From the IMG/VR virus record IMGVR_UViG_3300020048_000024, positions 95,890 to 159,889 of that record: DNA of 64,000 nt. One strand, written 5' to 3'. Made by a program: the position numbers and the translations under genes. Positions within the stretch are counted from its first letter, which is position 1. Each line of letters opens with the position of its first letter. The notes below the pieces were generated by a model. That model ran no database searches and had not been told where the DNA came from. It saw only the letters and a program-made list of their open reading frames with translations. Origin of the DNA: a virus. Below are positions 13,569-50,200 of this stretch, piece by piece.

Positions 13569-13582
13569 GCGATAGCCTCGTC

Positions 13583-13618
13583 AATCGATGACTAGAATTT
13601 TACTAGTCATCGATTTTT
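13583..13618 (+). terminator. Rho-independent terminator
   Basis: AATCGATGACTAG/CTAGTCATCGATT stem followed by a T-run. Confidence 0.8.
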
Positions 13619-13649
13619 GCATGCAATGCCTGAAAAAGATAAGTACTAG

Positions 13650-22224: not shown

Positions 22225-22811
22225 GTTTAGTACCAATGGTGGTAGAACAAACATCTCGTGGCGAACGTAGCTACGACATTTATAGTCGTTTGTTACGTGA
22301 TCGTATTATTATGCTACACGACGATGTTAATGAGCAAAGTGCATCTATTATCGTAGCTCAGTTATTGTTCTTGGAGAGTGAAGGAGACAAAGACATTCAC
22401 TTTTATATCAATAGTCCAGGCGGTAGCGTGACTGCTGGTATGAGCATTTATGATACCATGCAGTTTATCAAGTGCGACGTTAGCACAATCGTGATGGGTC
22501 AGGCATGTAGCATGGGATCATTATTGGCTCAAGCTGGCGCAGCAGGCAAGCGATTGATTCTTCCGTATGCCAGACATATGATTCATCAACCAAGTGGTGG
22601 TGCTCGTGGTCAAGCTACTGATATGGAAATTCAAGTTAAAGAGATTATTAAAATGAAACGAGAATTAACTCAGATTTATGTTAATCATAACTCAGTTAAC
22701 AAAACATACGATGAGTTATTAAAAGATATGGAACGTGATTTCTTTATGAGTGCTACTGAGGCCGTAGAATATGGTTTAGCAGATAAGGTTATTACAAAAC
22801 GAGGCGAGTAA
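22221..22811 (+). CDS. clpP: ATP-dependent Clp protease proteolytic subunit ClpP
   Basis: [36 protein letters not shown]. Confidence 0.97.
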
Positions 22812-32263: not shown

Positions 32264-32307
32264 CATTGTTACTAATTGTTTTGAATTTATCTTATTAAGA
32301 CAAAATG

Positions 32308-32314
32308 ATAAATA
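32308..32314 (+). promoter_or_regulatory. late promoter motif ATAAATA (also at 25667, 37995, 42137, 48605, 48830, 49667, 50175 and minus 54342-54348)
   Basis: matches core of T4 late consensus TATAAATA; recurs before late-type genes. Confidence 0.75.
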
Positions 32315-32320
32315 CTAATT

Positions 32321-34357
32321 ATGAAGATAACCGACATCATTTCTGAAAGTTCTAATAAAAGTACATGGGAACATTATCCATTAGATAAAGACACCATTAC
32401 TGGCTGGGGAAAATCACCCCGTGGCGGTCCTGGTGGATTTAAACCATCTAAATGGCAAGATAGAATGAGATGGGATCAAAATGATAAACAAGATTGGGAA
32501 AAATCATTTCCCAAAGACAAGCCAAAAGAAGTAGACGAGGGCGGAATATATAATCCTAATGGTAAAACATTTAGAGGGTCTGGTAACCCAATGCCACAGT
32601 TTGATCCCAACGATGCAATGATGCAAGGGGATTATGATCAGCTCAATACAGTTACTGCAACTGATCAAGGTGGAATTGATAAAGTTGAAAGTGATATTGA
32701 TAAAAATCGTCTTAAAGATATTATTCGTTCAGGTATGAAAATTTTAACTCCAGAAGAAAGAGAAGTATTAAATCTTAGATATTGGCACGATCTTGATCAT
32801 AATAAAGTTGGCAAAAAAATAGGATTAAATACGGACAAGGTTTGGAAAATAGAAGCTAAAGCACTAAGAAAATTACATGATCAGTCTAATGCTCCTGAAA
32901 TACGTCGATATATGGACCCGACTTTTAAACCTAAGCCGGCACCAATGGCCATCGGCAATGTAGTAAAATCTTTATCAACCACCAATGGACCTAAAGTTGG
33001 TTCATACTATGAAATGGGATTTAAGGATGCTATAAATGGCACAAAGTCAATGACTCGTCATAATGCTATGTCATCTGACGAAACTTGGGATCAACGCAGT
33101 CAATATGACGCAGGATATGAGTCTGGAAAAAGAAAAATAAAAAGCAGCAAAGTCAGAGAATCACTCAGCCCATTTAACGATGATCACAGTGAACTAGATC
33201 AATATGTCAAAGAAGAATTCAACAGAGAATTAGATGAAGTAAAATTCGATCCAAGTCGTCGTGGCTTCTTAAAGAAAGCTGGAGCTGTTGCTGCTAGTGC
33301 TGCTATGCCTAAGGGATTAGCCGGCGCTGCTATGAAAGCTGTTACGCCCTCTGCTACCAGTATAATATCAGTTCCTTTTGCTGGATTATCTGCAATAGAT
33401 TTAGATGATATTATTAATCTTCTTGATAGCGCAGAAGCAAAGAACATGAGACCCGGTCATGATCCATATGATCTAGATATTATGAAATCCATAGCCCAAG
33501 ATGCTGCTCGTGAGAGTTGGGGAAATGCATGGTTTATGAATGGAAATTCTGCTAAATCTTTTATTGATGCAGTTGAGCTAGGCAGAAAGAATGGTATGTC
33601 TGATGTAGATATTATAGATATTCTTAAGTCTACAGCCACTAATCTATATGCAGATGAACTGGAGCAACTAAAACCTGAAGATAAGAGAGAAGTACAATCA
33701 CGATCATTGAGAAATCCAAACATACCAAAAAATTCAGAATTAGCTTCCAGTGACGCTGACTTAGAAAAAGTAAGCTCGGATTGGGCAAAGCACTCATTAA
33801 ACCCATTAAATAAAACATCAGATACACCCTCTAGATTGAGTTCATTGGCTCGTGCTGCCGGAGCACAAATTGGCCGCACTATGTCAAACGTAGGCAAGGC
33901 AACAGCCAATACGATACTAAATCAACCAGCTAAAGACATGGGTAAAATTGAACCTACAATGTCACCAATAGCATTACCGGCTCCTACTAAGTCTGGTTTT
34001 AAAATACCACCAATTTTTAAATCATCGGTCAGACAAGCTGCAAAACAATATGTTGATAAAAACGTCGATGATGTAAAATCACACGTATCTAATTTTTATA
34101 ACAACCCAGATGAGCCATCAATTTTTACTGACAAACCATCAGTCAGACAAGCTGCAAAACAATATGTTGATAAAAACGTTGATGATGTAAAATCACACGT
34201 ATCTAATTTTTATAACAACTCAGATGAATCACCGACTTCTACCGTAAATCCCGGTATGCAAATTCCTAAACAAAAGTCAAAAGTATCAGTGTCTAAAAAA
34301 GACGATGAAGACGATAAAGAACTTGAAAGATTGAAAGAAATGATTAGAAGATCATAA
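32321..34357 (+). CDS. modular putative internal head protein: sigma70 region-4-like domain, internal Tat-like signal, repeats
   Basis: leader MKITDIISE; LTPEEREVL.LRY...IEAKALRKL; SRRGFLKKAGAVAASAA. Confidence 0.75.
   Translation: MKITDIISESSNKSTWEHYPLDKDTITGWGKSPRGGPGGFKPSKWQDRMRWDQNDKQDWEKSFPKDKPKEVDEGGIYNPNGKTFRGSGNPMPQFDPNDAMMQGDYDQLNTVTATDQGGIDKVESDIDKNRLKDIIRSGMKILTPEEREVLNLRYWHDLDHNKVGKKIGLNTDKVWKIEAKALRKLHDQSNAPEIRRYMDPTFKPKPAPMAIGNVVKSLSTTNGPKVGSYYEMGFKDAINGTKSMTRHNAMSSDETWDQRSQYDAGYESGKRKIKSSKVRESLSPFNDDHSELDQYVKEEFNRELDEVKFDPSRRGFLKKAGAVAASAAMPKGLAGAAMKAVTPSATSIISVPFAGLSAIDLDDIINLLDSAEAKNMRPGHDPYDLDIMKSIAQDAARESWGNAWFMNGNSAKSFIDAVELGRKNGMSDVDIIDILKSTATNLYADELEQLKPEDKREVQSRSLRNPNIPKNSELASSDADLEKVSSDWAKHSLNPLNKTSDTPSRLSSLARAAGAQIGRTMSNVGKATANTILNQPAKDMGKIEPTMSPIALPAPTKSGFKIPPIFKSSVRQAAKQYVDKNVDDVKSHVSNFYNNPDEPSIFTDKPSVRQAAKQYVDKNVDDVKSHVSNFYNNSDESPTSTVNPGMQIPKQKSKVSVSKKDDEDDKELERLKEMIRRS
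34023..34227 (+). repeat. internal direct repeat (about 90 bp, period 114 bp)
   Basis: SVRQAAKQYVDKNVDDVKSHVSNFYNN[P/S]DE twice, near-identical DNA. Confidence 0.9.
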
Positions 34358-34993
34358 ATGAAATCACATGAATTTATCTTGAAAGAAACACAACTAGATG
34401 AACTAATTAGTATTAGACCTCAGTTGAAAAAGAAAATAAACCCGACTCAACCTATAGGTGCGCCGGGAAAACGTGGCGGTGATTGGTTTGATATATTAAT
34501 TGGATATGGATTCGGTCCTATAGGCAATGGTGCGTTCGGGACAGTGTGGGATCATCCTAAATTTTCTTATGTACTCAAAATTTTTAAATCTAACGACGAA
34601 GCTTACAGAAGTTGGGTTAAAGTTTGTATGAATCATAAAAATAATCCGCATTTCCCTAAATTCGTTAGTACTAAAGTATGGTCGGTTACTCCCATAGTAT
34701 CGGCAATTAGAATGGAAAAATTAAGTCCATATTCAAGCGGAGACTACATAGGATTTTCGACAGTAATAAATAGACTTTCTATTTCAGATATAGTCAACCC
34801 AAATTACGAATGGAATGATGCTTATGGAAAGCCCTCACAATGGGATGAATACTGCTCTACCCACCCATTATGGATTCCAGCTCTAAAAATAACAGATGAA
34901 TTTATAACTTCTTATGGATATGCAAAAGATATACACACGGGAAATTTTATGATGCGTGGCGATGATATTGTTATAACTGATCCGGTGGTATAA
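34358..34993 (+). CDS. protein kinase, T7 gp0.7-like
   Basis: GNGAFGTVWDHP..YVLKI, MEKL, DIHTGNFM, ITDPV; leader MKSHEFILKE. Confidence 0.85.
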   Translation: MKSHEFILKETQLDELISIRPQLKKKINPTQPIGAPGKRGGDWFDILIGYGFGPIGNGAFGTVWDHPKFSYVLKIFKSNDEAYRSWVKVCMNHKNNPHFPKFVSTKVWSVTPIVSAIRMEKLSPYSSGDYIGFSTVINRLSISDIVNPNYEWNDAYGKPSQWDEYCSTHPLWIPALKITDEFITSYGYAKDIHTGNFMMRGDDIVITDPVV

Positions 34994-34997
34994 AAAT

Positions 34998-35390
34998 ATG
35001 AGAGCAAAAGAATTCATCGTAGAAGATTTTTCAAAAGATACTGAGGCAGAACAAGTATCTAAAGCGATGCCTGCTACTTATGCCATTTCTAAATTACCAA
35101 ATAGTGATTTTTATAAACAATATAGATTCGGAGTAGCAATTGCTGCTGCTCGTAGCGAAGAAGCTAGAAAAAGCGAACCAGCTCCAACAATGGCGCCGGC
35201 GTCTATATGGGGTGAAAATGAAATCGTAGTAAGTTATGATTCTACTACGGCTGATGTTATTGACGCGGCTCTCAAAATAGTTGGATTAGCTCCAAAAGAT
35301 AAAAAATTAATTAGCACTAAAAAAAGCGAAGAAATGCCAACGGTGAATTATCAAAGCCCAGTTCAAGGATTTAAAGGATACGAGAGATAA
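34998..35390 (+). CDS. hypothetical protein with capsid-targeting-like leader
   Basis: MRAKEFIVE. Confidence 0.75.
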   Translation: MRAKEFIVEDFSKDTEAEQVSKAMPATYAISKLPNSDFYKQYRFGVAIAAARSEEARKSEPAPTMAPASIWGENEIVVSYDSTTADVIDAALKIVGLAPKDKKLISTKKSEEMPTVNYQSPVQGFKGYER

Positions 35391-35391
35391 A

Positions 35392-36045
35392 ATGTTTATA
35401 AACGAAATAACAGAATCTAGTCAAAATATATCACGAGGAATTCGTAGAGGACTAGTAGCATATAAAGATGATCGTAAAACTCAACTAGAAAAGCTTGCTG
35501 TAAAAAAAGCAATCAAGCATTGTCCCTATTATTTTGCATACGGTATGAATACCGATACAAAAAATATGATGGTACGAACTGGTGATAGCACTGATATGGG
35601 AGCAGCAACTTTACCCAGATTTCAGCTAGAGTTTAAAACTTACTGTGATGTGGTTCCTAGTAGTCAAAATGATGTCGTTGGAGTATTATGGGAAATGTCT
35701 GCTAATGGCCTACATCTATTAGATCAACGAGAAGGATATCCTACATTCTACGATAGAAAAGTTATGAGAATTAGAGGTCAAGATGGTATAACTTATCCAG
35801 CATGGGTATATTATATGACTGCTTCGTACTCAAAAGATGGACTCAAGCCCCCACCAAATAGTTATTGGGAAACAGTAAATAGAGGGTACAATGAACATGG
35901 GATTCCTACTGGTCAATTAGACGAAGCTTATAACAGAGCTTGGGACGAGTACGAAGAAAAGAATTACTATAAGCAATTAGACCTAAAAAAACAACAATCA
36001 AAATACAACGATCAATATGAGGATGATTACGATGGATATCTTTGA
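35392..36045 (+). CDS. gamma-glutamylcyclotransferase (GGCT/AIG2-like)
   Basis: YFAYGMN, V.GVLW, LDQREGYP..Y, AWVYYM, P...Y...V..GY; leader MFINEITE. Confidence 0.88.
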   Translation: MFINEITESSQNISRGIRRGLVAYKDDRKTQLEKLAVKKAIKHCPYYFAYGMNTDTKNMMVRTGDSTDMGAATLPRFQLEFKTYCDVVPSSQNDVVGVLWEMSANGLHLLDQREGYPTFYDRKVMRIRGQDGITYPAWVYYMTASYSKDGLKPPPNSYWETVNRGYNEHGIPTGQLDEAYNRAWDEYEEKNYYKQLDLKKQQSKYNDQYEDDYDGYL

Positions 36046-36370
36046 TATAATTAAAACAATAGAAAAAGATTGGGCAATTATAGTGGCAGTATTTGCTTTT
36101 GGTGGATTTTGGTGGCAAGGTAAAGCTTGGTTCGAAAAAATGTCTAAAACACTAGACGCTGTTGGAAAAGTTCACGACGATCAAAATGAAACAATGGCTG
36201 AACAAAATTCAATGTTAGATAAAATATTATTTAAAACTGAAAATTTAGAAATTAGAACTTCTAAAATAGAAGAATCAGTTGAACAAATTCACGATAAAGT
36301 TCATGAACAGGAGATCAAGTTAGCTGTTTTAGAAACTTCACATAATCGTGCTAGAACAGGTAAAATGTAA
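36032..36370 (+). CDS. TM plus coiled-coil protein (possible holin-like)
   Basis: N-terminal TM helix; heptad repeats; GAGG SD. Confidence 0.65.
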   Translation: MDIFDIIKTIEKDWAIIVAVFAFGGFWWQGKAWFEKMSKTLDAVGKVHDDQNETMAEQNSMLDKILFKTENLEIRTSKIEESVEQIHDKVHEQEIKLAVLETSHNRARTGKM

Positions 36371-36372
36371 AA

Positions 36373-37251
36373 ATGAAAATTAACGAAATTGTTACCGAGG
36401 CAGTTAAACAAAGATTGGATCCTAAGTGCTGGAAAGGTAAGCATAAAGAGGGCACTAAGATCAAAGGTGGTGTTCGAGTTAATAATTGTGTACCAAATGA
36501 AAGTCTACAGGAATTTGCTTCAAGCGACAAAGATAGAGGCGATGATGGAGGAGATGAAGGATTCCCACGCAGACAGCCAAAGTTCAAACAAGGAGATGTA
36601 GTTTGGATCGAAGCAAACCCACCCAAGCATCGTAGTCATTTTGCTAGTAATTGCCCTGCCATTGTTATTGATTGTAGTCCTAAAGAAAGCGACCATGATG
36701 ACATAGTTTACCCAAGTCTTGATAAACACATGAATTCTGATGACATTGAATACTGGGTCAATAGTGCTCGTGAAGAAGCGGCTCGACAGCCTGAATATGG
36801 CTTGATAGCATTGCAAAGAGGAGATGTGTATAAAAGTTGGTGGTATAACGAGGATAATCTGATATTGATTCCAAAAGGAACTGATCCTGTTAAATTGTGC
36901 AGCAAGGGCGATACTGAATCTTATGATCAATTACCAGCTAAAGTTAAATCTTTATTAAATAGAGGATTAGGTCATGAAGATGTGACAGAAACCGCGGCTT
37001 GGCAAAAGAAGGCTGGAAAGAACAAGACAGGTGGTCTAAATCAAAAAGGTGTTGATTCATATCGTAAAGAACATCCAGGAAGTAAACTACAAACAGCAGT
37101 AACTACCAAGCCAAGTAAACTAAAGCCCGGTAGCAAAGATGCAAAACGTCGCAAAAGTTTTTGTGCTAGAATGTCTGGAGTTAAAGGGCCAATGAAAAAA
37201 GATGGTAAACCTACTCGAAAAGCACTAGCGTTAAGAAAGTGGAATTGTTAA
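36373..37251 (+). CDS. composite basic protein: CWKG..NCVP motif plus DUF6321-like C-terminal domain
   Basis: leader MKINEIVTE; AAWQ..GKN..GGLN.KG..SYR...PGSKL..RRKSFCARM..LRKWNC. Confidence 0.7.
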   Translation: MKINEIVTEAVKQRLDPKCWKGKHKEGTKIKGGVRVNNCVPNESLQEFASSDKDRGDDGGDEGFPRRQPKFKQGDVVWIEANPPKHRSHFASNCPAIVIDCSPKESDHDDIVYPSLDKHMNSDDIEYWVNSAREEAARQPEYGLIALQRGDVYKSWWYNEDNLILIPKGTDPVKLCSKGDTESYDQLPAKVKSLLNRGLGHEDVTETAAWQKKAGKNKTGGLNQKGVDSYRKEHPGSKLQTAVTTKPSKLKPGSKDAKRRKSFCARMSGVKGPMKKDGKPTRKALALRKWNC

Positions 37252-37268
37252 TAAATGAAGTCGATTAA

Positions 37269-38012
37269 GTGAGATCAGAAGAATTTATTGTAGAAGGATT
37301 CAAGCATAATCTAGCAGCGGCAACAATGCTGGGATTAAGTTCATTGAGTAATCCCACTGCTAATCTACAGCCAGCAGAAGTTATGCCAGTTCAATCTACT
37401 CAGACAGTTGGTAAATCATTACCGCTTGGAAAAAATGGAGTAAGTAACGAAGAAATTGCAGCTACAAGAGCATTATTACAAACACCCACTGCTAAAATGT
37501 TGTATAGAGAAGCGATAAAAGCTGGCATTAAAGGCACAGAATTGGCACAATTTTTGGCACAATGTGCTCATGAATCAAGAGACTTTCAAGATATCAAAGA
37601 ACGAGGCGGCACGTCATATTTTATGAAGCTATATGATAAGCAATATAGTCCACAAACTGCTGCTGATCTGGGTAATACTAAAAATGGTGATGGAGCAAAG
37701 TATTTTGGACGCGGATATATTCAATTATCAGGAAGAGAAAATTACACTAGAGCGAGTAAGGCACTGGGATTAGACCTAGTGAATCATCCTGAGTTAGTAG
37801 AAAGACCAGAAATTGCTGCTAAAACTTCAATTTGGTTTTGGCAAAACCGAGTGATAAAACGGTCAACTGATTTTAGTAATACTGCTGCTATGACTAAACC
37901 AATTAATAAAGGACTTCGTGATTTAGAAAAACGTCATGCCAAGTTTCTTGGATTTGATTATGTTATCAATGATAAAAGTAATGTAAAAGAACAGATAAAT
38001 AAAAGATCATGA
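37269..38012 (+). CDS. glycoside hydrolase family 19 (chitinase-like muramidase)
   Basis: AQFLAQCAHES, LGNT..GDG..Y.GRG.IQL.GR.NY, WFW, T..IN.G; leader MRSEEFIVE. Confidence 0.9.
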   Translation: MRSEEFIVEGFKHNLAAATMLGLSSLSNPTANLQPAEVMPVQSTQTVGKSLPLGKNGVSNEEIAATRALLQTPTAKMLYREAIKAGIKGTELAQFLAQCAHESRDFQDIKERGGTSYFMKLYDKQYSPQTAADLGNTKNGDGAKYFGRGYIQLSGRENYTRASKALGLDLVNHPELVERPEIAAKTSIWFWQNRVIKRSTDFSNTAAMTKPINKGLRDLEKRHAKFLGFDYVINDKSNVKEQINKRS

Positions 38013-39940
38013 GATACACTGATTTTAAAGCTATTATTAATGAAGTAGCAATGAACCCTACTGCTTATGCTCAGAGTATTGAGCAAGCACAGCAACATGG
38101 CGTCAAGATTGGTTTTGAATTTGAAGTATGTGTGCCTAGTGCTGTCTTTACGAGCAAAGAATCTAAGATCAAAACTATAAATTACAACTTAGTTGACGAA
38201 TTACTTTATGATGCAGACACAATAATAGATATGTCTCTTTATCAATATACTTCTGGAGATTCTGATCTGAGAAAGTTTGATAGCTTGTTTACTCCAAAGC
38301 CTAGAAAAAGTAAATATCCTAATCTTACTACTGCATTCAACACACTTTTAGAAAAAAGAGTCGAGCGAGCAAAAGAGCTATTTTATAAAATTCCCGAAGA
38401 TGTACGAGAAGAGTATATACCAGTTGCAAAAGCTAGACTTAGAAGATATACCGACGTCAACGATCAAAGAAATCCTCTGATGTTTGTACGAATACTTGCC
38501 CATTTGTTGTTGATAAATTCCAGAAGAGAAGCAAACCGACCATATAAAGATGCTCTAGAAGAGATGACTCAGCTTAGTTTTCATCAGTTAGATGTTCTTA
38601 GAGAAATGTTTCCTGAAACAAGTGTAGATAGAATTTTGGCTAGTATGTCAAAATATTTTGACTACGATCCGGAAAAAGTATATAATGAATATGATTTAGC
38701 TGAACATCTAGATGATGATGAAGATGATTATGAAGATTATCCGGGATACAGTAAAGCTAGCAAAGCTGTTGCTACTGCATTACGATCTACGATGAATAAA
38801 AAAGTTGTAATATTTGATGAATATCATGAAGATGATAAAAGACTAGATCGTTGGTACATTGAACCAGATGGTAGCTTGAGTCCAAACGAGCAGGAAGATG
38901 CTTGTGTCGAAATAGTAGGCCCACCACAAAAAGCTGCCAAAGCACTTGATTCATTAAAGCGATTCTTTGAAATGGCTCAACAGTTAAATCTTTATACTAA
39001 TCGTTCGACTGGTCTACATATCAATGTTAGTATTCCAAAAAATATTGATGTACTAAAGTTAGCTGTATTCACTGGTGACCAATATGTGCTAAAGCAGTAT
39101 GAAAGATTAGAAAATAACTACTCTCGTAGCGTCATGAGAGATTTAAGTGGTAATTATAATATGTCACCTGATTCGTCTAATTCGGTCGCTTTCAGTCAAG
39201 AAAAAACAGGCTCTGGTAAAAATGTATTTGGTCAAAAGAAATTTTCAAAAAATATTGAATTAGATCAGATTCAAGATATTGCTGATCGTATAAGCAATTC
39301 TCATACTGCTAGTATCAGCAATGAAAATGAAAATTATATTAGTTTTAGACATGTCGGCGGTGATTATTTAAAAGATCATCAAGGTATCGTCAATGTAGTA
39401 GGACGTTTTGTTCGCGCCATGATTATCGCTAGTGATCCAAATGCCTATCGTAATGAGTATCTAGCTGCAGTGGCCAAGTTAGCCGCTCCTGCTATGGCAT
39501 CAACTGGCTTTGATGCAGAAATTCTTAGAATTAAACAAGAAGGTCTTTCAATAATCACTGTGTATCTTTATAAAGATGGTCGTACTAATTTTAAAACATT
39601 ATTATCTAGAGCAGGTTATCAAGCTTCTCAGAATATTATAATTGGATCAATAGAGACCAATAGTGAAGAAGCTTATAACGTAATGGGAGCAAACGCACGT
39701 AACGAAAGTATGAAATTAAGATTAGCCGATTCGCCTATTACTAAATTTGCCAAGGTTGTTATACGACCAACAAATTTTACAGCAAGTGAGTATTATAGAC
39801 AACGAGTTGGTGGAGCATTAGGATACGTAGGAGACGGATATTCTCTTGAGATACTTGATAAATTACCACCTACCGATCCTTATGTGCAACAAGTTATCTT
39901 GCAGATGCGAAGAGATCGTTTTAAAAATAAGAAAAATTAA
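38009..39940 (+). CDS. putative amidoligase (COOH-NH2 ligase, GS fold), paralog 1
   Basis: GFEFE, WYIEPDGSL, EIVGPP, STGLHINVS, YISFRHVGGDY. Confidence 0.8.
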   Translation: MRYTDFKAIINEVAMNPTAYAQSIEQAQQHGVKIGFEFEVCVPSAVFTSKESKIKTINYNLVDELLYDADTIIDMSLYQYTSGDSDLRKFDSLFTPKPRKSKYPNLTTAFNTLLEKRVERAKELFYKIPEDVREEYIPVAKARLRRYTDVNDQRNPLMFVRILAHLLLINSRREANRPYKDALEEMTQLSFHQLDVLREMFPETSVDRILASMSKYFDYDPEKVYNEYDLAEHLDDDEDDYEDYPGYSKASKAVATALRSTMNKKVVIFDEYHEDDKRLDRWYIEPDGSLSPNEQEDACVEIVGPPQKAAKALDSLKRFFEMAQQLNLYTNRSTGLHINVSIPKNIDVLKLAVFTGDQYVLKQYERLENNYSRSVMRDLSGNYNMSPDSSNSVAFSQEKTGSGKNVFGQKKFSKNIELDQIQDIADRISNSHTASISNENENYISFRHVGGDYLKDHQGIVNVVGRFVRAMIIASDPNAYRNEYLAAVAKLAAPAMASTGFDAEILRIKQEGLSIITVYLYKDGRTNFKTLLSRAGYQASQNIIIGSIETNSEEAYNVMGANARNESMKLRLADSPITKFAKVVIRPTNFTASEYYRQRVGGALGYVGDGYSLEILDKLPPTDPYVQQVILQMRRDRFKNKKN

Positions 39941-42106: not shown

Positions 42107-42150
42107 ATTTCAAATAACTAAGTAGTAGCGAAAAAGATAAATACATTATC

Positions 42151-44163
42151 ATGAGATACTTAGACTTCAAATCATCACAGTTAAACGAAATTGCAATGAA
42201 TCCTACGGCATTCAAGCAAAGTATGTCCAATTCCGATCAAGTTAAGGTTGGATTCGAATTTGAATGTATTGTACCAGAAGCATCATTGAATGCGTGGAAA
42301 CAATCTTTAAATGATTCACAAAAAACAAAAGAAGAAATAATAGCTGATATTAAAACAAAGAATATTAAGGAATTTCGTCAACTAATTCCTGGACTAATTG
42401 ACATGAATAATTTTTTCTTTCAGTATATTACGCCAAAAGACTCTACTGATGGTGTTTTAAAATTATATCGTCAAGATTTTTTTTCTACTAAATTTTATAA
42501 AGAGTTAAGCAAAACTCTTAGCGCACAGCTTAGAAAGACAAAACGTCAATACGCCGATAATGGATACTCTCCAACTGAAATAAAAAATCAGATTCAACGA
42601 ACTAAAGATGAAGTCAAAAGAATTTTCAATGATAAATTACAAGTTGATTTATCATCTAGATCAAAAAGAAAATTAACATATGACGAAATTACTATGATAT
42701 CTTATGCATTATATACTGATTCAAATTGGGCTGCAGTTGAACAAACTTCTAGAATTTTAAGACACTGGATTGATCAGAATGCAGGTGTGTCAAGTGATTC
42801 ATTTACCCAATGGGTAATGGAAACTTACGGCACTGATAATATGGGTGAGCTATTAGCAACTAAATGGAAATTTGCTGCTGGTGGAACTACTAAGTTATTA
42901 AATTATATACGAAATAGAGATTCTAATAGAATTAGCAATGGATATAGTGGTACCAGCAAGATGATGAAAGCTGTATTTGAGCCAATATTTGGAGAAATGG
43001 TAGTATTCAATAACTATCATCAAGAAACAAAAAAACTAGATCGTTGGTATATTGAACCAGATGGTAGCTTAGGAGGTCAGGGAAATGATCAGGGTCTAGA
43101 GATAGTAGGACCACCTGAACCAGCTCCGATAGCATTGTCTACGTTGAGTAAATTTTTCACTACAGCAAAACAATACAACATATATACTAATAGTAGTACT
43201 GGATTACATATTAATGTAAGCGTTCCAGATAAATTAGATGTGCTTAAATTAGCACTAATTCTAGGTGACGAATACGTTTTAAATTTATTTGGACGAGGCC
43301 CAGGAACTCCAGGATCACGTTATGCTCGTAGTGTAATTATTAATCTCAAAAAAGAAGTACAGTCTCGCTCAAATCGTACTCAAGAAGAAATGATGAAGAT
43401 GCTTCCAAAAATAGCACAAAATATTTCTTCAGATCACTTTGCTAGTATAAACTTTAACGGAAAATATGTTAGTTTTAGATCAGCTGGAAATGATTATCTT
43501 AATAATCCTGAGGGAATAATTAACACACTAGGTCGTTTTGTTAGAGCAATGATTATTGCTAGTGATCCAACTGCTTACAAAGAAGAGTATTTGAAAAAAT
43601 TATATCAACTTACCTATGTACCTACTACTACACCAAATGCATGGCAAGCTATCATGAAATATAGAGAAACTGGAGTTTCTGCTATTAGAATTAATTGTGT
43701 TACTCTAGATACAGAAAAAGGCTTCAGTAAAAATTCTATCATTGAACGAGCAATTCGTCGAGGGTTGATTAATACTGATGGATGGTCTGCACCAATGTAC
43801 GTTGCAGATCCATCACAGTGGACTAACAATGTTGACATTCAGATATTGCTAGGAAACGAAGATATTAAGAGTGAGATGCTTGCTGGGACCAACGGATTTG
43901 GTCCAGAGACAACAGAAAAACTTGTAAATACTCCAGCAAATCAATATTATTCAATTATGATTTATCCAAAAACAGTATTGGCTGCTAATAATTTTGCAAA
44001 ATCTGAAATTCATAGTCGTGCATTTAATGCCGCTGGTGACTCTAGTATTCCATTTTACGGTAGAGTATTTAAAGTTAACATATCTAGTGGTGATGGAAAA
44101 TTATTCTCTGATATTATATCTAGTATGGCTAAAAGTGCAAAATCAACTACGGATAATACATAG
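42151..44163 (+). CDS. putative amidoligase, paralog 3
   Basis: same motif set; own ATAAATA promoter. Confidence 0.8.
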   Translation: MRYLDFKSSQLNEIAMNPTAFKQSMSNSDQVKVGFEFECIVPEASLNAWKQSLNDSQKTKEEIIADIKTKNIKEFRQLIPGLIDMNNFFFQYITPKDSTDGVLKLYRQDFFSTKFYKELSKTLSAQLRKTKRQYADNGYSPTEIKNQIQRTKDEVKRIFNDKLQVDLSSRSKRKLTYDEITMISYALYTDSNWAAVEQTSRILRHWIDQNAGVSSDSFTQWVMETYGTDNMGELLATKWKFAAGGTTKLLNYIRNRDSNRISNGYSGTSKMMKAVFEPIFGEMVVFNNYHQETKKLDRWYIEPDGSLGGQGNDQGLEIVGPPEPAPIALSTLSKFFTTAKQYNIYTNSSTGLHINVSVPDKLDVLKLALILGDEYVLNLFGRGPGTPGSRYARSVIINLKKEVQSRSNRTQEEMMKMLPKIAQNISSDHFASINFNGKYVSFRSAGNDYLNNPEGIINTLGRFVRAMIIASDPTAYKEEYLKKLYQLTYVPTTTPNAWQAIMKYRETGVSAIRINCVTLDTEKGFSKNSIIERAIRRGLINTDGWSAPMYVADPSQWTNNVDIQILLGNEDIKSEMLAGTNGFGPETTEKLVNTPANQYYSIMIYPKTVLAANNFAKSEIHSRAFNAAGDSSIPFYGRVFKVNISSGDGKLFSDIISSMAKSAKSTTDNT

Positions 44164-46106
44164 TGAGATACTCAGATTTAAAATCTACTGTAGTAGAAGT
44201 AGCGATGAATCCTACTGCGTATGCTCAATCAATGAAGCAGGCAGATGAAGTTAAAATTGGATTTGAATTTGAAGTATGTGTTCCTCAATATCGTATTGCT
44301 GATGCGCCCGAACTTGTAAAAACAATAACGGCAGAAACTGTTCAAGATATTATTACATATAATGACATGTTAATATCTAGTGGATTCGACGAGTATATAA
44401 GTCCAACAGTGTTTGACAAACTATTTAAATTTAAGGCTCCTAGCAAATATAGCAACATGACAGAAGTACTTGATGATTTACGAAAACAAGCATTGCCACA
44501 AATTTTAAAACTTTTTCATGAAATACCAGAGAACAAACGAGTAGAGGCAATTAAAGAAGCTAAAGATATTATGACGCGCAGCAATAGACGTAATTCTTGG
44601 AAATCATATGGATCTAAAGAATTGTATTTTGCTTATCTATTTGGGTATGAAATATATCTTCATAGTGGTCGTAGTGATACTCTTAAACGTATTGGATTAA
44701 ATATTCGTAATTTAGCAGATATTAGATGGTCGGAATTGCTCAATACAGCATTTGAATCTAACAATCTTTCAAACGAACAAAATATTCAGGATAATCTGAC
44801 AACGTATTTTACATTTGATCCTGATACAGTATATAATACTCTAAATTTAGCTGAATATAAAGCAGATGAAGATGATTATGATTATGATGATGATAATGAT
44901 TATGGATATGACTATTTGGGTGCAGTTAAAGTATTAAAACCAGCATTAGAAAAAACAATGAATTCTGAAGTAACTGTATTTTCAAGTTATCATCAAAGAA
45001 CTAAAAATATGACTAGCTGGTACATTGAACCAGATGGTAGTTTAAATACCAAAGAGTATGATGATGGTGCTGCTGAAATAGTAGGACCACCACAACCCGC
45101 AGCTAAAGCACTTGAAACACTAGCAAAATTTTATAGTATGGCTAAAAAATTACATCTGTATACTAATGATTCTACTGGATTACATATAAACATTAGTATC
45201 CCACAAAATATTGATGTATTAAAACTAGCTGTATTTTCTGGAGATCAGTATGTGCTACAACAGTTTAACAGACTGGATAATAATTATGCTGCAAGTGTTA
45301 TTCGTGGTTTAAAGACTGGTAATGACTGGCATCCTAGTGGATATCCTGGAATTACACCAAGAGCAGCAAATGATGAAGGATTGACAAAGCTAAAAATTAA
45401 ATCAATCGAGGATCTTGCTAAATCATTAACAAACAGACATACAGCTAGTATTACTAATAACGGAAAGTATATAAGTTTTCGTCAAGTTGGCGGAAATTAT
45501 CTAAATGATTATGATCAAGTTCTGAATGTAGTTGGAAGATTTGTTCGGGCTATTATTATTGCCAGTGATCCCAACGCTTATCGTAAAGAATATCTTGCTG
45601 AATTGGGTAAGATGATTATGCCAACATCTGATAATAGTATTGATTTACAAATTGAGCAACTAAGAAAAGAAGGAATGAAAGTAACTGTTGGTTGCATGTA
45701 CGTTAGTAGCTTTAGTATCGGTAGAAGCAGAGCTATGAAATGGGAAACTTTAATAAGAAATATATTTTTTGATCCGCAAGAGTACTCAAACACTGTTACA
45801 CTTTTAAGTCTAGACAAGAATAGCGAAGAAGCTAAATTAAAATTGTCTTTTACTAGAAGTGATATTAGTGCTGCTAAACAAAGACAATTACAAGCTGCGG
45901 ATGTTAAAAACTTTGCAAAGTTTGTCGTTCCAACAGATCAGATTCTTAAGTCAATGTCAAATTTGTTCGATCGGGTGCATACCAATTCAATTGGTTCTGA
46001 GGGCCAATGGGAAAGATTTACACTCACTAACACAGTTTTACCTTCAACTGATCCAATAGTTCAAAAGTTAATATTAAGTTTAAGAAAACAAAAATTAGGA
46101 AAATAA
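44163..46106 (+). CDS. putative amidoligase, paralog 4
   Basis: same motif set; GTG start overlapping previous stop. Confidence 0.8.
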   Translation: MRYSDLKSTVVEVAMNPTAYAQSMKQADEVKIGFEFEVCVPQYRIADAPELVKTITAETVQDIITYNDMLISSGFDEYISPTVFDKLFKFKAPSKYSNMTEVLDDLRKQALPQILKLFHEIPENKRVEAIKEAKDIMTRSNRRNSWKSYGSKELYFAYLFGYEIYLHSGRSDTLKRIGLNIRNLADIRWSELLNTAFESNNLSNEQNIQDNLTTYFTFDPDTVYNTLNLAEYKADEDDYDYDDDNDYGYDYLGAVKVLKPALEKTMNSEVTVFSSYHQRTKNMTSWYIEPDGSLNTKEYDDGAAEIVGPPQPAAKALETLAKFYSMAKKLHLYTNDSTGLHINISIPQNIDVLKLAVFSGDQYVLQQFNRLDNNYAASVIRGLKTGNDWHPSGYPGITPRAANDEGLTKLKIKSIEDLAKSLTNRHTASITNNGKYISFRQVGGNYLNDYDQVLNVVGRFVRAIIIASDPNAYRKEYLAELGKMIMPTSDNSIDLQIEQLRKEGMKVTVGCMYVSSFSIGRSRAMKWETLIRNIFFDPQEYSNTVTLLSLDKNSEEAKLKLSFTRSDISAAKQRQLQAADVKNFAKFVVPTDQILKSMSNLFDRVHTNSIGSEGQWERFTLTNTVLPSTDPIVQKLILSLRKQKLGK

Positions 46107-46107
46107 T

Positions 46108-47556
46108 ATGAGATTAAAGGAATTCACGACAGAAAGTTTACAAACCGTTCATGAAGTGGCGATGAATCCTACTGCCTTTGCTCAATCAATGGAGCAGGGC
46201 GAATCTGAAGGCGTTAAGATTGGATTTGAATTTGAGATATGTATTCCTTATTCTTTTTGGTCAACTCAAAATGGTAATGATGAATTCATTAATAATGATG
46301 AAGACAATGACTACGAAGATGACGATGGAACTGATTTTGAATATGATGACAACGATGACAGTGATTACGAGTACTACGATAGAAAGTACGATGCGGCAAG
46401 TAATAAATTAAAATCTGTACTTAAAAGCAAAATGGGCTCTAAAGTCGTAGTATTCAATGAATATCATCAATATACAAAATCACTAGATCGTTGGTATATT
46501 GAACCAGATGGAAGTTTATCTCCTAATGAGCGTGAAGATGCTGCTCTTGAAGTAGTAGGCCCACCTGAACCTCCTAGCAAAGCACTAGACTCACTTAAAA
46601 AGTTTTTTGGAATTGCTGAACAATATAAATTTTATAGTAATAATTCAACCGGTCTACATATCAATGTCAGTTTACCCAAAGACCTGGATGTGTTAAAATT
46701 GGCTGTATTCACCGGCGATCAATATATACTTAAAAAATTCGGTCGTGAAAACAATGGCTATGCTAGTGGTGTTATGAAAAGTCTGACTAGTTCTGATTTT
46801 TCTTCAGCAGTTACTAAACCGAATATGTCAACTGAAATTAAATTAGCGACAGTACAAAAAATTGCTAGAGATATTAGTAGAAGTCATACTGCTAGTATTA
46901 GCTTTAATGGAAACTATGTAAGTTTTAGACACACAGGTGGCGACTATTTAAAAGATCATCAAGATATTGTTAATGTAGTAGGACGTTTTGTACGAGCAAT
47001 GGTCATTGCTTGTGATCCCACAGCATATCGTAATGAGTATCTAGCTGCTGTAGCTAAACTAGTGGCCCCAGCTATGGATAGTACTTCGCTTGAAGCAACA
47101 ATTGAAAAAATAAAAAAAGAAGGTTTGCCATCTGCTAGTATTTGTTTATATTCAAAAGATCATACTCCTACAATAGATGACTTAAATAAAACAACAACAC
47201 CTAGAACTAGAGTTAATTTATTTGTCAGTGAGCTATGTGATATACAATTAGTTAAATCTGGTGATTATGCCAAAACTAAATTAATTGCAAATTCAAGACC
47301 AAATGGTAGTGCTAGCAATGCAATGAGTACGGCTGAGCCTGATAAATTTTCTACTTTTATGGCAATACCAACTAAACTTCAGTCTATCTTATCGATCAAT
47401 CAATATCGTGGTAAGAAAGTTTTAATCTGGGCAGATAATGGAAATCAAGGATTTTATTATGTAAGAGTAGTTAATCTTCCACCTACTGATCCCAGTGTGC
47501 AAGCGGTATTAGTAAAATTACGTAGAGAAGCAATTAGACAAAGAACTGGACAATAA
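46108..47556 (+). CDS. putative amidoligase, paralog 5 (insert reduced to acidic linker)
   Basis: same motif set; D/E/Y-rich insert of about 45 aa. Confidence 0.8.
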   Translation: MRLKEFTTESLQTVHEVAMNPTAFAQSMEQGESEGVKIGFEFEICIPYSFWSTQNGNDEFINNDEDNDYEDDDGTDFEYDDNDDSDYEYYDRKYDAASNKLKSVLKSKMGSKVVVFNEYHQYTKSLDRWYIEPDGSLSPNEREDAALEVVGPPEPPSKALDSLKKFFGIAEQYKFYSNNSTGLHINVSLPKDLDVLKLAVFTGDQYILKKFGRENNGYASGVMKSLTSSDFSSAVTKPNMSTEIKLATVQKIARDISRSHTASISFNGNYVSFRHTGGDYLKDHQDIVNVVGRFVRAMVIACDPTAYRNEYLAAVAKLVAPAMDSTSLEATIEKIKKEGLPSASICLYSKDHTPTIDDLNKTTTPRTRVNLFVSELCDIQLVKSGDYAKTKLIANSRPNGSASNAMSTAEPDKFSTFMAIPTKLQSILSINQYRGKKVLIWADNGNQGFYYVRVVNLPPTDPSVQAVLVKLRREAIRQRTGQ

Positions 47557-47574
47557 TCAATTTGTCCAAAATGT

Positions 47575-47603
47575 TTGACTCTATACTACTACTGTAGTAT
47601 TAT
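47575..47603 (+). promoter_or_regulatory. sigma70-type promoter
   Basis: TTGACT-17-TATTAT. Confidence 0.55.
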
Positions 47604-47609
47604 AACAAC

Positions 47610-47792
47610 ATGACTAAAAATTCTGACAACTCAACATATGAAGTAATTACACAGATTGATCCTGAAACTGGAGACACTGTAATTCCATTACCTCCAGAAC
47701 TGTTACAAAGAATGGGATGGAAAGAAGGTGACGAATTAGATTTCAACTATGACAAAGAAGGAAGACTAGTAGTTACTAAGCGTGGTGGATAA
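47610..47792 (+). CDS. AbrB/MazE/SpoVT-like DNA-binding protein
   Basis: GD.VIPLP.ELL..MGWKEGDEL.F......LVV. Confidence 0.8.
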   Translation: MTKNSDNSTYEVITQIDPETGDTVIPLPPELLQRMGWKEGDELDFNYDKEGRLVVTKRGG

Positions 47793-48166
47793 TGAATACA
47801 ATAAATTCTAATACACTTACCATAGGAGCAGGTCTTGGTGGAAGTTCTGGGCAATCTCTTATCGCTTCAACCATTGGCCCGACATGGTCTAGTTCCACTA
47901 TGTCTGATCCCGGACTTTTTGTCAAAGGAAACGCTGAGATCACGGGCACATTAACAGTTGGTGGGCAAGAAATCACCAAAACAATTACCAAAACAATCGA
48001 CGAACGATTATCTGCCATTGAAGAACGACTGTGTATTCTTAGAATCGATGAAAAATTGGCCGACCGTTGGGAAGAATTGGGTAAATTACGTAAACAGTAT
48101 CGTGAATTGGAACAAGAATGCTGGGAAAAGGACGAAATAGTCCGAATTCTCAAAGGTATACCTTGA
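47792..48166 (+). CDS. hypothetical protein
   Basis: ERL..IEERL.IL...LE..WEEL coiled-coil. Confidence 0.75.
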   Translation: MNTINSNTLTIGAGLGGSSGQSLIASTIGPTWSSSTMSDPGLFVKGNAEITGTLTVGGQEITKTITKTIDERLSAIEERLCILRIDEKLADRWEELGKLRKQYRELEQECWEKDEIVRILKGIP

Positions 48167-48191
48167 CAAATAATACAGACTGTGCTACAAT
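48163..48191 (+). promoter_or_regulatory. sigma70-type promoter
   Basis: TTGACA-17-TACAAT. Confidence 0.7.
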
Positions 48192-48209
48192 GTACTATAA
48201 TCTACTATT

Positions 48210-48602
48210 ATGGTATATACTATGACAATGCACTTGACACACTTCACTACTACTGGCAAACGTAAAGGTAAGTTTAAGTACGCTTCGGCAGAAGCCAAGC
48301 GTGTGGCAGAACAGCTAGAGCAAGACTGGAAAGCACTAAAGATATCTTATAGTGCTCCATCTGTCAAAAAGCCCATCAAAAATGCCAGAACACTTGGAAA
48401 AAGTTTACCCACTATTCCACAACGTGGCACATTATTGTCGGCACCATCGCTCAATTCTGGAGTTGGAACTGCCGTAAAAGCAGATATTCCGATATATACT
48501 GGCAACAAAATGATTGGTATTGGTGTCTTACACAAGTCTAATGCTGTACCTGTTTTTTCAGATGAAGAAGCGGTAGAAATTTCTAAAATGCGTAGAGGCT
48601 AA
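48210..48602 (+). CDS. conserved hypothetical protein of T4-like phages
   Basis: YTG..MIGIG.LHKSNAVPV...MRR. Confidence 0.8.
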   Translation: MVYTMTMHLTHFTTTGKRKGKFKYASAEAKRVAEQLEQDWKALKISYSAPSVKKPIKNARTLGKSLPTIPQRGTLLSAPSLNSGVGTAVKADIPIYTGNKMIGIGVLHKSNAVPVFSDEEAVEISKMRRG

Positions 48603-48617
48603 CGATAAATAAACTAT

Positions 48618-48833
48618 ATGGCCAAAGAAGAAGCAATTAAAATAGACGGCACGGTAACAGAACTGTTACCAAATGCTATGTTCAGAGTACAACTACCAAA
48701 CGAAAAACTTATAATAGGTATTATCTCTGGAAAAATGCGTCAGCATGGGATTAAAATACTAATGGGCGACATTGTAGAAGTAGAATTTTCTCCCTATGAT
48801 CTAACTCGCGGAAGAATAACTCGTCGCAGATAA
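48618..48833 (+). CDS. infA: translation initiation factor IF-1
   Basis: MAKEE.I...[12 protein letters not shown]....ISGKMR...[18 protein letters not shown]. Confidence 0.96.
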
Positions 48834-48841
48834 ATACTATC

Positions 48842-49666
48842 ATGCGAATTCAAGAGTTACTTACCGAATCTACTTATCATAAACTACCTGCTATAAAGAC
48901 AGTATTTGAGGCTGATTGGGATAATGAACCAATCAAGCATTACACTGACGATGAGCAACGCGAGATACATAGAAGTGAGGAACTCCCATATACTAGTGTA
49001 GATAGTAGTATTAACAAATATACTACAAATCAAGGTAAGCATTGGAATAATTTCTTACATCGTCACTATCGTGGTCGCTCTACAAACACAGATCACAGTA
49101 GATACGCCAATCATGTAATATCAACTGATGCGGCTTTGACTAAAAATACTCTTAAAAAAGACTATGTGCTATACACTGGACTAAATGAAAGTCCAGTATT
49201 GGCATTTGAATTATACAATCAGCCAACTGATAAACCATTGACTGTTCATTTACCTGCGTATACTAGTACTACAACTTCGTGGAGAGTGGCGGTTAGATTT
49301 GCACACAATTATCTTAGTAGTAAAGAGACCGATGCTCATTATGGCGGCAAACCTGTAGAAAAATATGATCGTACTCGTCATGAATTATTAGATATTAATG
49401 GAGAAAAAATAAAAGAACTCCCTGATAATCCTAATAAACGATCAATTGACATATTACGAATTTTTGTACCAGCCGGAACCACTGGCGGAAGCGTAAGAGA
49501 TATGTCATATAATTCAGAAGAATTTGAAGTACTACTACCGCGAGGGCTGAATGTAATAATCAGTCCAAAACCTCATGTAATGTATCAATTCGGAGCAGAC
49601 ATATATGTTTGGAATGCAAAAGTCGTGGGTCACGATCCGCAACCAGTTGAACTTATCAAAGCATAG
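48842..49666 (+). CDS. ADP-ribosyltransferase (R-S-E / VIP2 / Alt-like)
   Basis: INKYT..WN.FL, LYTGL (Arg position is Thr), YTSTT, EFEVLLPRG; leader MRIQELLTE. Confidence 0.8.
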   Translation: MRIQELLTESTYHKLPAIKTVFEADWDNEPIKHYTDDEQREIHRSEELPYTSVDSSINKYTTNQGKHWNNFLHRHYRGRSTNTDHSRYANHVISTDAALTKNTLKKDYVLYTGLNESPVLAFELYNQPTDKPLTVHLPAYTSTTTSWRVAVRFAHNYLSSKETDAHYGGKPVEKYDRTRHELLDINGEKIKELPDNPNKRSIDILRIFVPAGTTGGSVRDMSYNSEEFEVLLPRGLNVIISPKPHVMYQFGADIYVWNAKVVGHDPQPVELIKA

Positions 49667-49678
49667 ATAAATACTATC

Positions 49679-50143
49679 ATGCAAATTCGAGAAATCATAA
49701 CAGAGGTTTTTAATAGTCAGCCCTATCCATTAAAAGTGGAACCTGATCCCAGTCGTTATGAACAGCATCTTAGTGCAGTTACCGACGACGGAAGACCAAT
49801 TGACATATTCTTAAACTATCATTGGCCAGCCGACAAAAAATCAAGATATATAGGAGTGGTATTTGAGGTAGACAAATCACATCAAATCACTGGAAAAGGC
49901 GATGCTCTTAGAATTTTAAACACTGTACTGTACGCTGTCACTGCAGAAGCCAATGAATTAGAACCTGCTTATATTGCTTTAGCGGCAGATTCGCTACACT
50001 ACGACAGTTATCGTGCATTGGCTAGAAGATTTGGAGGTCAATATAAATTACTTCCAACGAATAAAATTCCAGACATGTTTTTACAACATCTAAGACCTGA
50101 TCAAGATGCAAGTTCATTGTTTATACTAAAAAGAGATAATTAA
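49679..50143 (+). CDS. hypothetical protein with capsid-targeting-like leader
   Basis: MQIREIITE; ITGKGDA.RI..TV motif; late promoter. Confidence 0.75.
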   Translation: MQIREIITEVFNSQPYPLKVEPDPSRYEQHLSAVTDDGRPIDIFLNYHWPADKKSRYIGVVFEVDKSHQITGKGDALRILNTVLYAVTAEANELEPAYIALAADSLHYDSYRALARRFGGQYKLLPTNKIPDMFLQHLRPDQDASSLFILKRDN

Positions 50144-50200
50144 TAAATCATCAAAAAAAACAAAGCTAATATTGATAAATAATAGACAGAGGATAAAACA

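Follow-up and report, generated by a model that had tools for sequence, protein, structure and literature searches.

Gene Content of the Locus

The analyzed stretch of DNA, herein referred to as the window, comprises 64,000 nucleotides (nt) and corresponds to bases 95890–159889 of the 159,889-bp IMG/VR virus contig IMGVR_UViG_3300020048_000024. It has 36% G+C, and the sequencing runs containing its DNA are freshwater or aquatic metagenomes. The completeness of the contig was estimated by CheckV at 45%, which gives a genome of about 350 kb. All positions refer to the window unless the contig is named. The region 32321–50143 contains a block of 18 genes, including those for a protein kinase, an ADP-ribosyltransferase, a gamma-glutamyl(amine) cyclotransferase (GGCT; GGACT domain), a GH19 muramidase, a protein with a Sigma70_r4 domain, and five amidoligase paralogues; all of these labels, given in a preliminary description of the DNA, were retained. 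Proteins encoded by 13 of the 18 genes begin with a short leader of the pattern M-[KR]-x-x-[ED]-[FIL], which closes with an [ILV]-x-E site. These genes and proteins are herein referred to as tagged.

The 13 N-termini quoted in the preliminary description were all found at the genes named there. In the order of gene starts, the leaders are MKITDIISE (32321), MKSHEFILKE (34358), MRAKEFIVE (34998), MFINEITE (35392), MKINEIVTE (36373), RSEEFIVE after a GTG start (37269), MRYTDFKAIINE (38009), MRATEF..PINE (39941; MRATEFTTSNIDNQLLPINE), MRYLDFKSSQLNE (42151), RYSDLKSTVVE after a GTG start (44163), MRLKEFTTE (46108), MRIQELLTE (48842), and MQIREIITE (49679). The five genes of the block having no leader start at 36017, 47610, 47792, 48210, and 48618. 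All genes and promoter boxes of the block described below lie on the plus strand.

Occurrence of the Leader

Within the 13 tagged genes, the leader stands at the head of at least nine unrelated protein families. Its closing site agrees with the cleavage rule of the T4 prohead protease gp21, with Glu at position P1 and with Ile, Leu, or Val at position P3 in 12 of the 13 leaders; the exception is the protein encoded at 46108, which has Thr at P3. On the contig, the pattern M-x3-[DE]-[FILVM]-x1-3-E was found at 7 of the 836 internal Met positions. In the related loci described below, the pattern set was found at 50 of 4758 internal Met positions (1.05%), and for 13 tagged genes out of 19 at p = 0.0105 the probability is P ~5e-22. 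The codons vary among the leaders at every conserved position (GAA/GAG/GAC/GAT; TTT/TTC/ATC/ATA/ATT/TTA). Thus, selection acts on the peptide and not on the DNA.

At least eight further leader genes were found elsewhere on the contig, which makes at least 21 tagged genes per 160 kb. Among the genes tagged outside the block are those for another kinase paralogue, for a peptidase of the M78/IrrE type, and for a protein with a twin-arginine (Tat) signal. Judged from the genes of the contig and of its relatives, the tagged set is not limited to the block 32321–50143; it is genome-wide and clade-wide.

A likeness of the leader to the capsid-targeting sequence (CTS) of phage T4 had been pointed out beforehand and is borne out by the T4 record, in which the internal proteins IPII and IPIII begin with MKTYQEFIAE/A and IPI begins with MKTFKEFTSTTTPVSTITE/A. 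The short form of the T4 sequence is comparable to MRAKEFIVE/D and RSEEFIVE/G, and the long form, that of IPI, to MRATEFTTSNIDNQLLPINE/V. Internal proteins of T-even phages are diverse, the CTS being their sole common part (PMC3012670). The T4 CTS loads proteins onto the core, and gp21 then strips it from the internal proteins and from Alt; Alt, an ADP-ribosyltransferase, is packaged, cleaved, and, like the internal proteins, ejected (PMC5694885).

Conservation of the Leader in Related Loci

No related loci were found with a single amidoligase as the query; these were retrieved with an alignment as the query. Of 8000 scored candidates, 565 were homologues of the amidoligase encoded at 38009 at E <= 0.001; the contigs carrying them reach 378 kb. 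Among the best 120 homologues (34–56% identity), 99 start with M-x3-[DE]-[FILVM], and the rest are mostly near variants. The Glu of the cleavage site preceding [AV][AP]MNP (E12 in the protein of 38009) is invariant in 30 aligned homologues (34–57% identity), and the length of the leader before it varies.

In 45 related IMG/VR loci, designated here by L and a number where necessary, the leader was found on 178 of 835 open reading frames (ORFs; 21%), an approximately 20-fold enrichment over internal Met contexts. The consensus in these loci is M-[RK]-[AIL]-x-[ED]-[FIL]-[LIT]-x-E. For nearly half of the tagged ORFs, residue 9 is the last one of the x-E site. The leader also accompanies the other enzymes of the block. 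Orthologues of GGCT start with MKITDILTE/AGEQPIYYFAYGML, and some of them are fused to amidoligases. The single kinase orthologue found starts with MRAQEFITE. Homologues of the ADP-ribosyltransferase have the leader in 38 of 50 cases, and many are fused to NUDIX or GNAT domains. All relatives of the GH19 protein (7/7) are tagged, and in three GH19 orthologues (L028:17012-17656, L024:4636-5277, and L040:15688-16362) the tag is directly followed by a Tat signal containing RRGFL (MRSYEFISEIDRRGFLGALGAG..). Since the tag is found on differing first domains, for example in the GGCT-amidoligase fusions, it behaves as a portable module.

Putative Late Promoters and Transcription Units

A late-promoter-like box, GATAAATA, was found in 15 copies versus 6.7 expected, and none of 100 shuffled sequences reached 15. 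Seven copies are located just 5' of gene starts inside or at the end of the block. The box ends 5–7 nt 5' of the ATG in the genes at 32321, 38009, 42151, 48618, 48842, and 49679. Its positions are 32307–32314 (6 nt from the start codon of 32321, the first gene in the block), 37994–38001 (7 nt before 38009), and 42136–42143 (7 nt before 42151). Together with the genes they precede, the remaining boxes span 48604–48833 (the IF-1 homologue, 48618), 48829–49666 (the ADP-ribosyltransferase gene, the box being 5 nt before the ATG of 48842), and 49666–50143 (the gene for a 154-amino-acid protein, the box being 5 nt before the ATG of 49679). Thus, the earlier statement that late promoters precede several tagged genes stands for the presence of an enriched box and has to be corrected for its form, which is GATAAATA and not the T4 form TATAAATA; the exact T4 box showed no enrichment.

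Transcription units were classed by the nearest upstream box, either GATAAATA (late) or TTGACA-N-TAnnnT (early), a heuristic of this analysis. Genes with the leader accounted for 17 of 58 in late units, 0 of 60 in early units, 0 of 10 in mixed units, and 4 of 63 in unclassed ones; by this sequence-based classing, the difference between late and early units has a Fisher probability of 1.4e-6. The equal frequency in early genes that would have spoken against a packaging tag was thus not observed. The 41 late-unit genes having no leader include capsid, portal, and fibre genes. These genes are late yet untagged, and therefore the leader is no general feature of late genes.

No Shine-Dalgarno sequence is present between the GATAAATA box and the ATG at 32307–32320, 37994–38008, 42136–42150, 48604–48617, 48829–48841, or 49666–49678. 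With the spacing of T4 late promoters, the late mRNAs of the block would be leaderless or nearly so. Downstream cistrons of the block abut the preceding stop codon (TAAATG, ATGA, TAGTG) and have weak or no Shine-Dalgarno sequences, an arrangement that suggests re-initiation.

Head Module and Phage Affiliation

A T4-type head module was found on the contig in the gene order portal, 73-amino-acid core protein, 321-amino-acid protein, homing endonuclease, protease, 365-amino-acid scaffold-like protein, and major capsid protein. The gp21 homologue that had been sought elsewhere in the genome is therefore present: the prohead protease (contig 13401–14039, minus strand) matched phrog_207 (2.6e-58) and the structure of T4 gp21 (PDB 5jbl, E 8e-15). 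For the major capsid protein, structures of T4 gp23 were matched at about 1e-35. Beside gp46/47-like genes, the contig encodes a late sigma factor of the gp55 type with 313 amino acids; its families came from PHROGs (phrog_12791, 2e-77; phrog_234, 8e-23), with no match in Pfam. Outside the window, the major capsid gene contains a run of 10 N (contig 11508–11517), and an open-ended giant ORF (>2989 amino acids) on the minus strand, in contig bases 1–9000, runs off the contig start.

A comparison of portal proteins places the contig closest, among cultured phages, to Sinorhizobium phage Phosso, Agrobacterium phage Atu_ph07, and the Pseudomonas PA5oct group, with about 50% identity to each. A megablast search of 7.7 kb of the window against phage records gave no match. 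By its sequence relationships, the source is an uncultured T4-related jumbo phage close to Atu_ph07 and PA5oct, which belong to the T4-distant Rak2-like jumbo phages.

Tagged Proteins in Virions of Cultured Relatives

A homologue of the amidoligases was found in Atu_ph07 (tblastn, 5e-18). The protein starts with MRWQDISSKKLTE, and its coding sequence is located two genes from that of the portal; it was assigned as gp196 by gene order and molecular weights. Gp196 was detected in the virion with 14 unique peptides (Table S5, Attai et al. 2018, PMC6102473). Proteins gp199, gp205, and gp206 of Atu_ph07 have similar N-termini and are also listed for the virion (PMC6102473). For gp23–76 of this phage, all 14 proteins with the pattern M[KR]xx[DEQ][FILV] were found in the virion versus 16 of the 40 others (P 4.5e-5). 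The proteins gp53–63 (Atu_ph07 39484–50592), which are among these 14, are 11 tagged paralogues with the N-terminus M[RK]WxQL[TN]E, all of them virion-detected; nine (gp55–62) are of approximately 30 kDa. Their shared N-terminus goes unremarked in Attai et al. 2018.

For PA5oct, proteins flagged in the GenBank record as detected by electrospray ionization tandem mass spectrometry (ESI-MS/MS) were considered as virion proteins. Such flags were found for 9 of the 18 proteins whose annotated start shows the motif versus 93 of 461 proteins overall (a base rate of 20%; P 0.004), and for 7 of the 11 motif proteins with a basic second residue (P 0.002). In the Rak2-like phages 121Q and phAPEC6, a radiation-sensitive mass of internal head protein was described, the make-up of which was not identified there (PMC7247149). 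No description of a shared leader, a CTS-like tag, or its processing was found in the literature on phages of the Rak2, Atu_ph07, and PA5oct type.

Amidoligases

The first amidoligase paralogue (38009–39940, 643 amino acids), with the leader MRYTDFKAIINE/VAMNPTAYAQS, where the slash marks the predicted cut, matched the Pfam family Amidoligase_2 (PF12224) at 2.5e-5 and 24.7 bits, the cut-off being 22. Three further paralogues were assigned by paralogue alignment: 39941–42106 (721 amino acids, MRATEFTTSNIDNQLLPINE/VAMNP), 42151–44163 (670 amino acids, MRYLDFKSSQLNE/IAMNP), and 44163–46106 (647 amino acids, GTG start, RYSDLKSTVVE/VAMNP). The fifth (46108–47556, 482 amino acids, MRLKEFTTE..VHE/VAMNP) matched Amidoligase_2 at 9e-4 and 19.6 bits, under the cut-off, and was assigned with the help of the alignment. 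The paralogues are 31–50% identical to the first one. Common to all of them are the tag, a GFEFE strand, the catalytic core, and a variable domain at the C-terminus; all but the protein of 46108 also have a variable insert of approximately 200 residues. The GxExE, EIVGPP, and GLHINVS blocks are invariant across all five proteins.

In the AlphaFold2 (AF2) model of the 38009 protein, residues 1–12 are disordered, with a predicted local distance difference test (pLDDT) score under 50, and the fold begins at residue 13, that is, at the predicted cut. In a wide search with VIA-align, the ten best matches of this model all belong to the glutamine synthetase family (Z 9.0–6.9), with YbdK-like proteins and PafA/Dop further down. 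A Foldseek search of the whole model against PDB gave nothing significant.

Other Genes of the Block and Its Neighbourhood

The first gene of the block (32321–34357) encodes a 678-amino-acid protein with the leader MKITDIISE. Sigma70 region 4 was found at residues 139–185 (Pfam Sigma70_r4, 1.6e-8; PHROG sigma factor), and no region 2 was found in Pfam or PHROGs; by its domain content, the product is a sigma4-domain protein and no whole sigma factor. Residues 302–336 form an internal Tat-like segment, RELDE/VKFDPSRRGFLKK (RELDE/VKFDPSRRGFLKKAGAVAASAAMP), with S-R-R-x-F-L-K and a hydrophobic stretch at residues 311–336 (Pfam TAT_signal, 17.1 bits, 0.005, under the cut-off of 22.7). An alignment pairs this segment with the tagged N-terminus of the Tat-signal protein encoded at contig 77956–78504, the N-terminal Tat copy of which meets the Pfam TAT_signal cut-off. 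It is possible that the 32321 product is a polyprotein cut by the protease, with a second half that would begin with an export signal.

The following gene (34358–34993, leader MKSHEFILKE) encodes a T7 gp0.7-type protein kinase of 211 amino acids (phrog_15752, E 9.7e-13), which has a Gly-rich loop with Lys (GNGAFGTV..VLK) and a DIHTGN catalytic loop; no match was found in Pfam. The second kinase paralogue on the contig is 42% identical to it and has the leader MKSHEFLPE. A protein of 130 amino acids (34998–35390) has the leader nearest to MKTYQEFIAE of T4, MRAKEFIVE, and the last protein of the block (49679–50143, 154 amino acids) has the leader MQIREIITE. For both of these, and for the N-terminal part of the 36373 product, no family was found in Pfam or PHROGs, and nothing usable came from the ESM Atlas for 34998 or 49679.

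The GGCT (35392–36045, 217 amino acids, leader MFINEITE) matched Pfam GGACT at 1.7e-15, with 58.1 bits and a cut-off of 22.8. The untagged gene at 36017–36370 encodes a 117-amino-acid protein with a membrane segment and a coiled coil, which is conserved in the relatives. The next gene (36373–37251, 292 amino acids, leader MKINEIVTE) encodes a protein with a Cys-containing KQRLDPKCWKG module and a basic C-terminal DUF6321 domain (Pfam, 1.9e-20). Both this 30-residue Cys module (KQRLDPKCWKGKHKEGTKIKGGVRVNNC) and the basic tail with DUF6321 are found again, at varied positions, in differing, mostly tagged proteins (36373–37251; L017, L024, L039, and L043), a distribution that suggests shuffling of modules among the cargo proteins. 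The GH19 muramidase (37269–38012, 247 amino acids) has a GTG start and a Sec-like hydrophobic stretch after the leader RSEEFIVE; it matched Pfam Glyco_hydro_19 at 7.4e-17, with 62.4 bits and a cut-off of 25.5.

The block is interrupted at 47610–48602 by three small untagged genes: an AbrB/MazE-like one (47610–47792), 47792–48166, and 48210–48602. The first and the third of them have sigma-70-like -35 and -10 boxes, the -10 box being only 6–8 nt before the ATG; possibly, these are leaderless early transcripts set in a late region. They are followed by an untagged gene for a homologue of translation initiation factor IF-1 (48618–48833; Pfam eIF-1a, 1e-22). This homologue, which is preceded by a GATAAATA box and lies amid the block genes, is conserved in two related loci (L022 and L051); its link to leaderless late translation is a guess.

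The ADP-ribosyltransferase (48842–49666, 274 amino acids, leader MRIQELLTE) matched Pfam ADPrib_exo_Tox at 1.5e-12, with 47.7 bits and a cut-off of 23.4. The R-S-E residues were located in an alignment of 24 homologues: R77 is nearly invariant, and S142/T143 and E227-x-E229 are invariant. A Thr at the catalytic Arg position, as indicated by a phmmer alignment to C3, was rejected, since the family alignment shows the near-invariant R77. A tblastn search with this protein against phage records gave no match.

The divergent neighbour of the block (30320–32197, minus strand) encodes a full DnaK (Pfam HSP70, 4e-259), and a separate GATAAATA box lies 59 nt upstream of this gene. Two further window ORFs, 13650–14852 (+) and 22221–22811 (+), are taken by us, from a look at their N-termini, to be ClpX- and ClpP-like.

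Interpretation of the Leader

Taken together, these observations make it probable that the leader is a T4-type capsid-targeting propeptide on large enzyme cargo that is loaded late, cut, and ejected with the DNA. In this model, the 13 proteins would be made late, from GATAAATA promoters read by the gp55-type sigma factor. The leader of 8–20 residues would direct them to the scaffolding core while the prohead assembles, and the gp21-type protease would then cut behind the Glu of [ILV]-x-E. After this cut, the mature enzymes would remain beside the DNA inside the head, and at the next infection they would most likely exit together with the DNA. Hence the T7-type kinase, the R-S-E ADP-ribosyltransferase, the five amidoligases of glutamine synthetase (GS) fold, the GGCT, the GH19 wall hydrolase, and the sigma-region-4 protein would be on hand before any phage gene is read. 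We infer packaging and cleavage in this phage, injection, and the host targets. Packaging is the better-supported half of the model; ejection and action in the next host are drawn from the analogy with T4. The injected toolkit proposed in the preliminary description is thus partly upheld, at the level of sequence (motif, T4 likeness, protease, restriction to units classed as late, and cargo) and by the virion proteomes of two cultured relatives; its confinement to one block is not upheld.

Several points weigh against this model. The phage is known from its sequence alone, and the evidence from particles comes from relatives or from T4. The test on Atu_ph07 relied on Gln at position 5; with Asp or Glu only, it gives 5/5 and P 0.045. 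Half of the motif proteins of PA5oct were undetected in virions, and the virion list of this phage is noisy, including ribonucleotide reductase and DNA ligase. The classing of units into late and early is a heuristic. As predicted leaderless or translationally coupled cistrons, the tagged genes could be under some constraint in their first codons. The putative export signals after the leader, in GH19 and in the C-terminal half of the 32321 protein, could fit export from the producing cell, and the ATP-dependent amidoligases could act in the producing cell and not in the next host. Finally, the leader is one residue shorter than that of T4, and the register differs.

If the leader does load the prohead, the cargo may nevertheless work or stay inside the head, as components of an inner body or of DNA condensation, or as enzymes that act on head proteins during maturation. 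The internal protein mass of 121Q and phAPEC6 (PMC7247149), the very basic DUF6321 tail of the 36373 protein, and the 11 tagged paralogues, mostly of about 30 kDa, in the Atu_ph07 virion are consistent with such a role. We regard it as unlikely, given that the catalytic motifs of the amidoligases and of the ADP-ribosyltransferase are invariant, that ATP or NAD, as required by the kinase, the ADP-ribosyltransferase, and the amidoligases, is not available from a head filled with DNA, and that Alt and the internal proteins of T4 are ejected (PMC5694885). Another explanation is that the leader is a tag for some other late function, such as recognition by phage DnaK or ClpXP, or an initiation context for leaderless or re-initiated cistrons. 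The dnaK gene divergently adjoins the block, two window ORFs look ClpX- and ClpP-like by their N-termini only, and the PA5oct record encodes ClpX, ClpP, and ClpA; the ATG follows closely on the GATAAATA box, and Shine-Dalgarno sequences are weak or missing in downstream cistrons. An initiation context or a chaperone tag fits poorly with the 41 untagged late-unit genes, including those for capsid, portal, and fibre proteins, with residues that are conserved while their codons vary, and with an invariant Glu at a variable distance from Met. Tagged homologues in the virions of two relatives and a sequence near the experimentally defined T4 CTS also argue for packaging, and this explanation is considered improbable. 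The likeness might also be left over from gene duplication, or be due to chance given the A+T-rich genome, and have no common function; the five paralogous amidoligases and the two kinase paralogues speak for this. Such an explanation is contradicted by the tests run, as the leader heads at least nine unrelated families, is kept on separate homologues in other phages, and is enriched approximately 20-fold over internal Met contexts; we give it hardly any weight.

On top of the capsid-targeting model, a two-step delivery code may be proposed as a speculation, which we consider rather doubtful. Tag-only proteins (kinase, ADP-ribosyltransferase, amidoligases, and GGCT) would act in the cytoplasm of the new host, and proteins with a Tat or Sec signal uncovered by the protease (GH19 and the C-terminal half of the 32321 product) would go via host export to the envelope. 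The amidoligases and GGCT might write and erase gamma-glutamyl-type marks on host proteins or metabolites, as in Pup ligation.

The CTS principle belongs to textbook T4 biology. What is new here concerns the clade that bears the tag, the scale of its use, the enzyme families among the cargo, and the combination of tag and export signal; the mechanism is already known from T4. If the tag works as in T4, the injected payload of uncultured jumbo phages can be read straight from their sequences. This payload would comprise a kinase, an ADP-ribosyltransferase, an amidoligase family of at least 565 members, a GGCT, and wall hydrolases. It would provide candidates for the internal head protein of Rak2-like phages and would point to host-takeover or anti-defence enzymes acting before transcription starts. 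A tag of 8–9 residues might also load foreign proteins into jumbo-phage heads.

Comparison with Known Systems

The closest parallel is phage T4, where IPI, IPII, IPIII, and Alt likewise have a short N-terminal propeptide with an [ILV]-x-E end on unrelated proteins. In both cases, a gp21-family protease, a gp23-type head, and a gp55-type late sigma factor are encoded on one genome, and an ADP-ribosyltransferase, packaged in T4, is among the tagged proteins. Unlike the T4 sequence, the leader described here has Arg or Lys at position 2 and Asp or Glu at position 5. At least 21 tagged genes were found on 160 kb, known from the genes alone, in contrast to a handful in T4. The cargo consists mostly of enzymes (GS-fold amidoligases, GGCT, T7-type kinase, GH19, and M78 peptidase) and not of small nuclease inhibitors, and some of the tags precede Tat or Sec signals.

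The nearest cultured relatives, the Rak2-like, Atu_ph07, and PA5oct jumbo phages, have 93–131 virion proteins, most of unknown function, and tagged proteins including gp196 are among them. Atu_ph07 itself uses the variant leader of its gp53–63 paralogues.

The five phage amidoligases share their fold with the GS-fold amidoligases, including glutamine synthetase, gamma-glutamyl-amine synthetases, YbdK, and the Pup ligase PafA. They differ from these enzymes in having the N-terminal tag, the variable insert (about 200 residues), and an additional domain of about 150 residues at the C-terminus, and in their phage-only distribution.

In phiKZ-like jumbo phages (phiKZ and SPN3US), many head-internal proteins, including the virion RNA polymerase, are similarly cut by a gp21-related protease at x-x-E and ejected (PMC5694885). 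In contrast to the leader described here, their propeptides are mostly longer than 100 residues and have no common short tag (PMC5694885); the kinship is only via the protease and the capsid fold. Polyvalent proteins and MuF-type toxins (cited in Iyer et al. 2021, PMC7824862) also deliver ADP-ribosyltransferase, GNAT, and nucleotide-targeting domains with the DNA, pre-empting host defence. These are single giant multidomain proteins or fusions to head proteins, whereas the cargo described here is encoded by separate genes, each with its own predicted cleavable tag.

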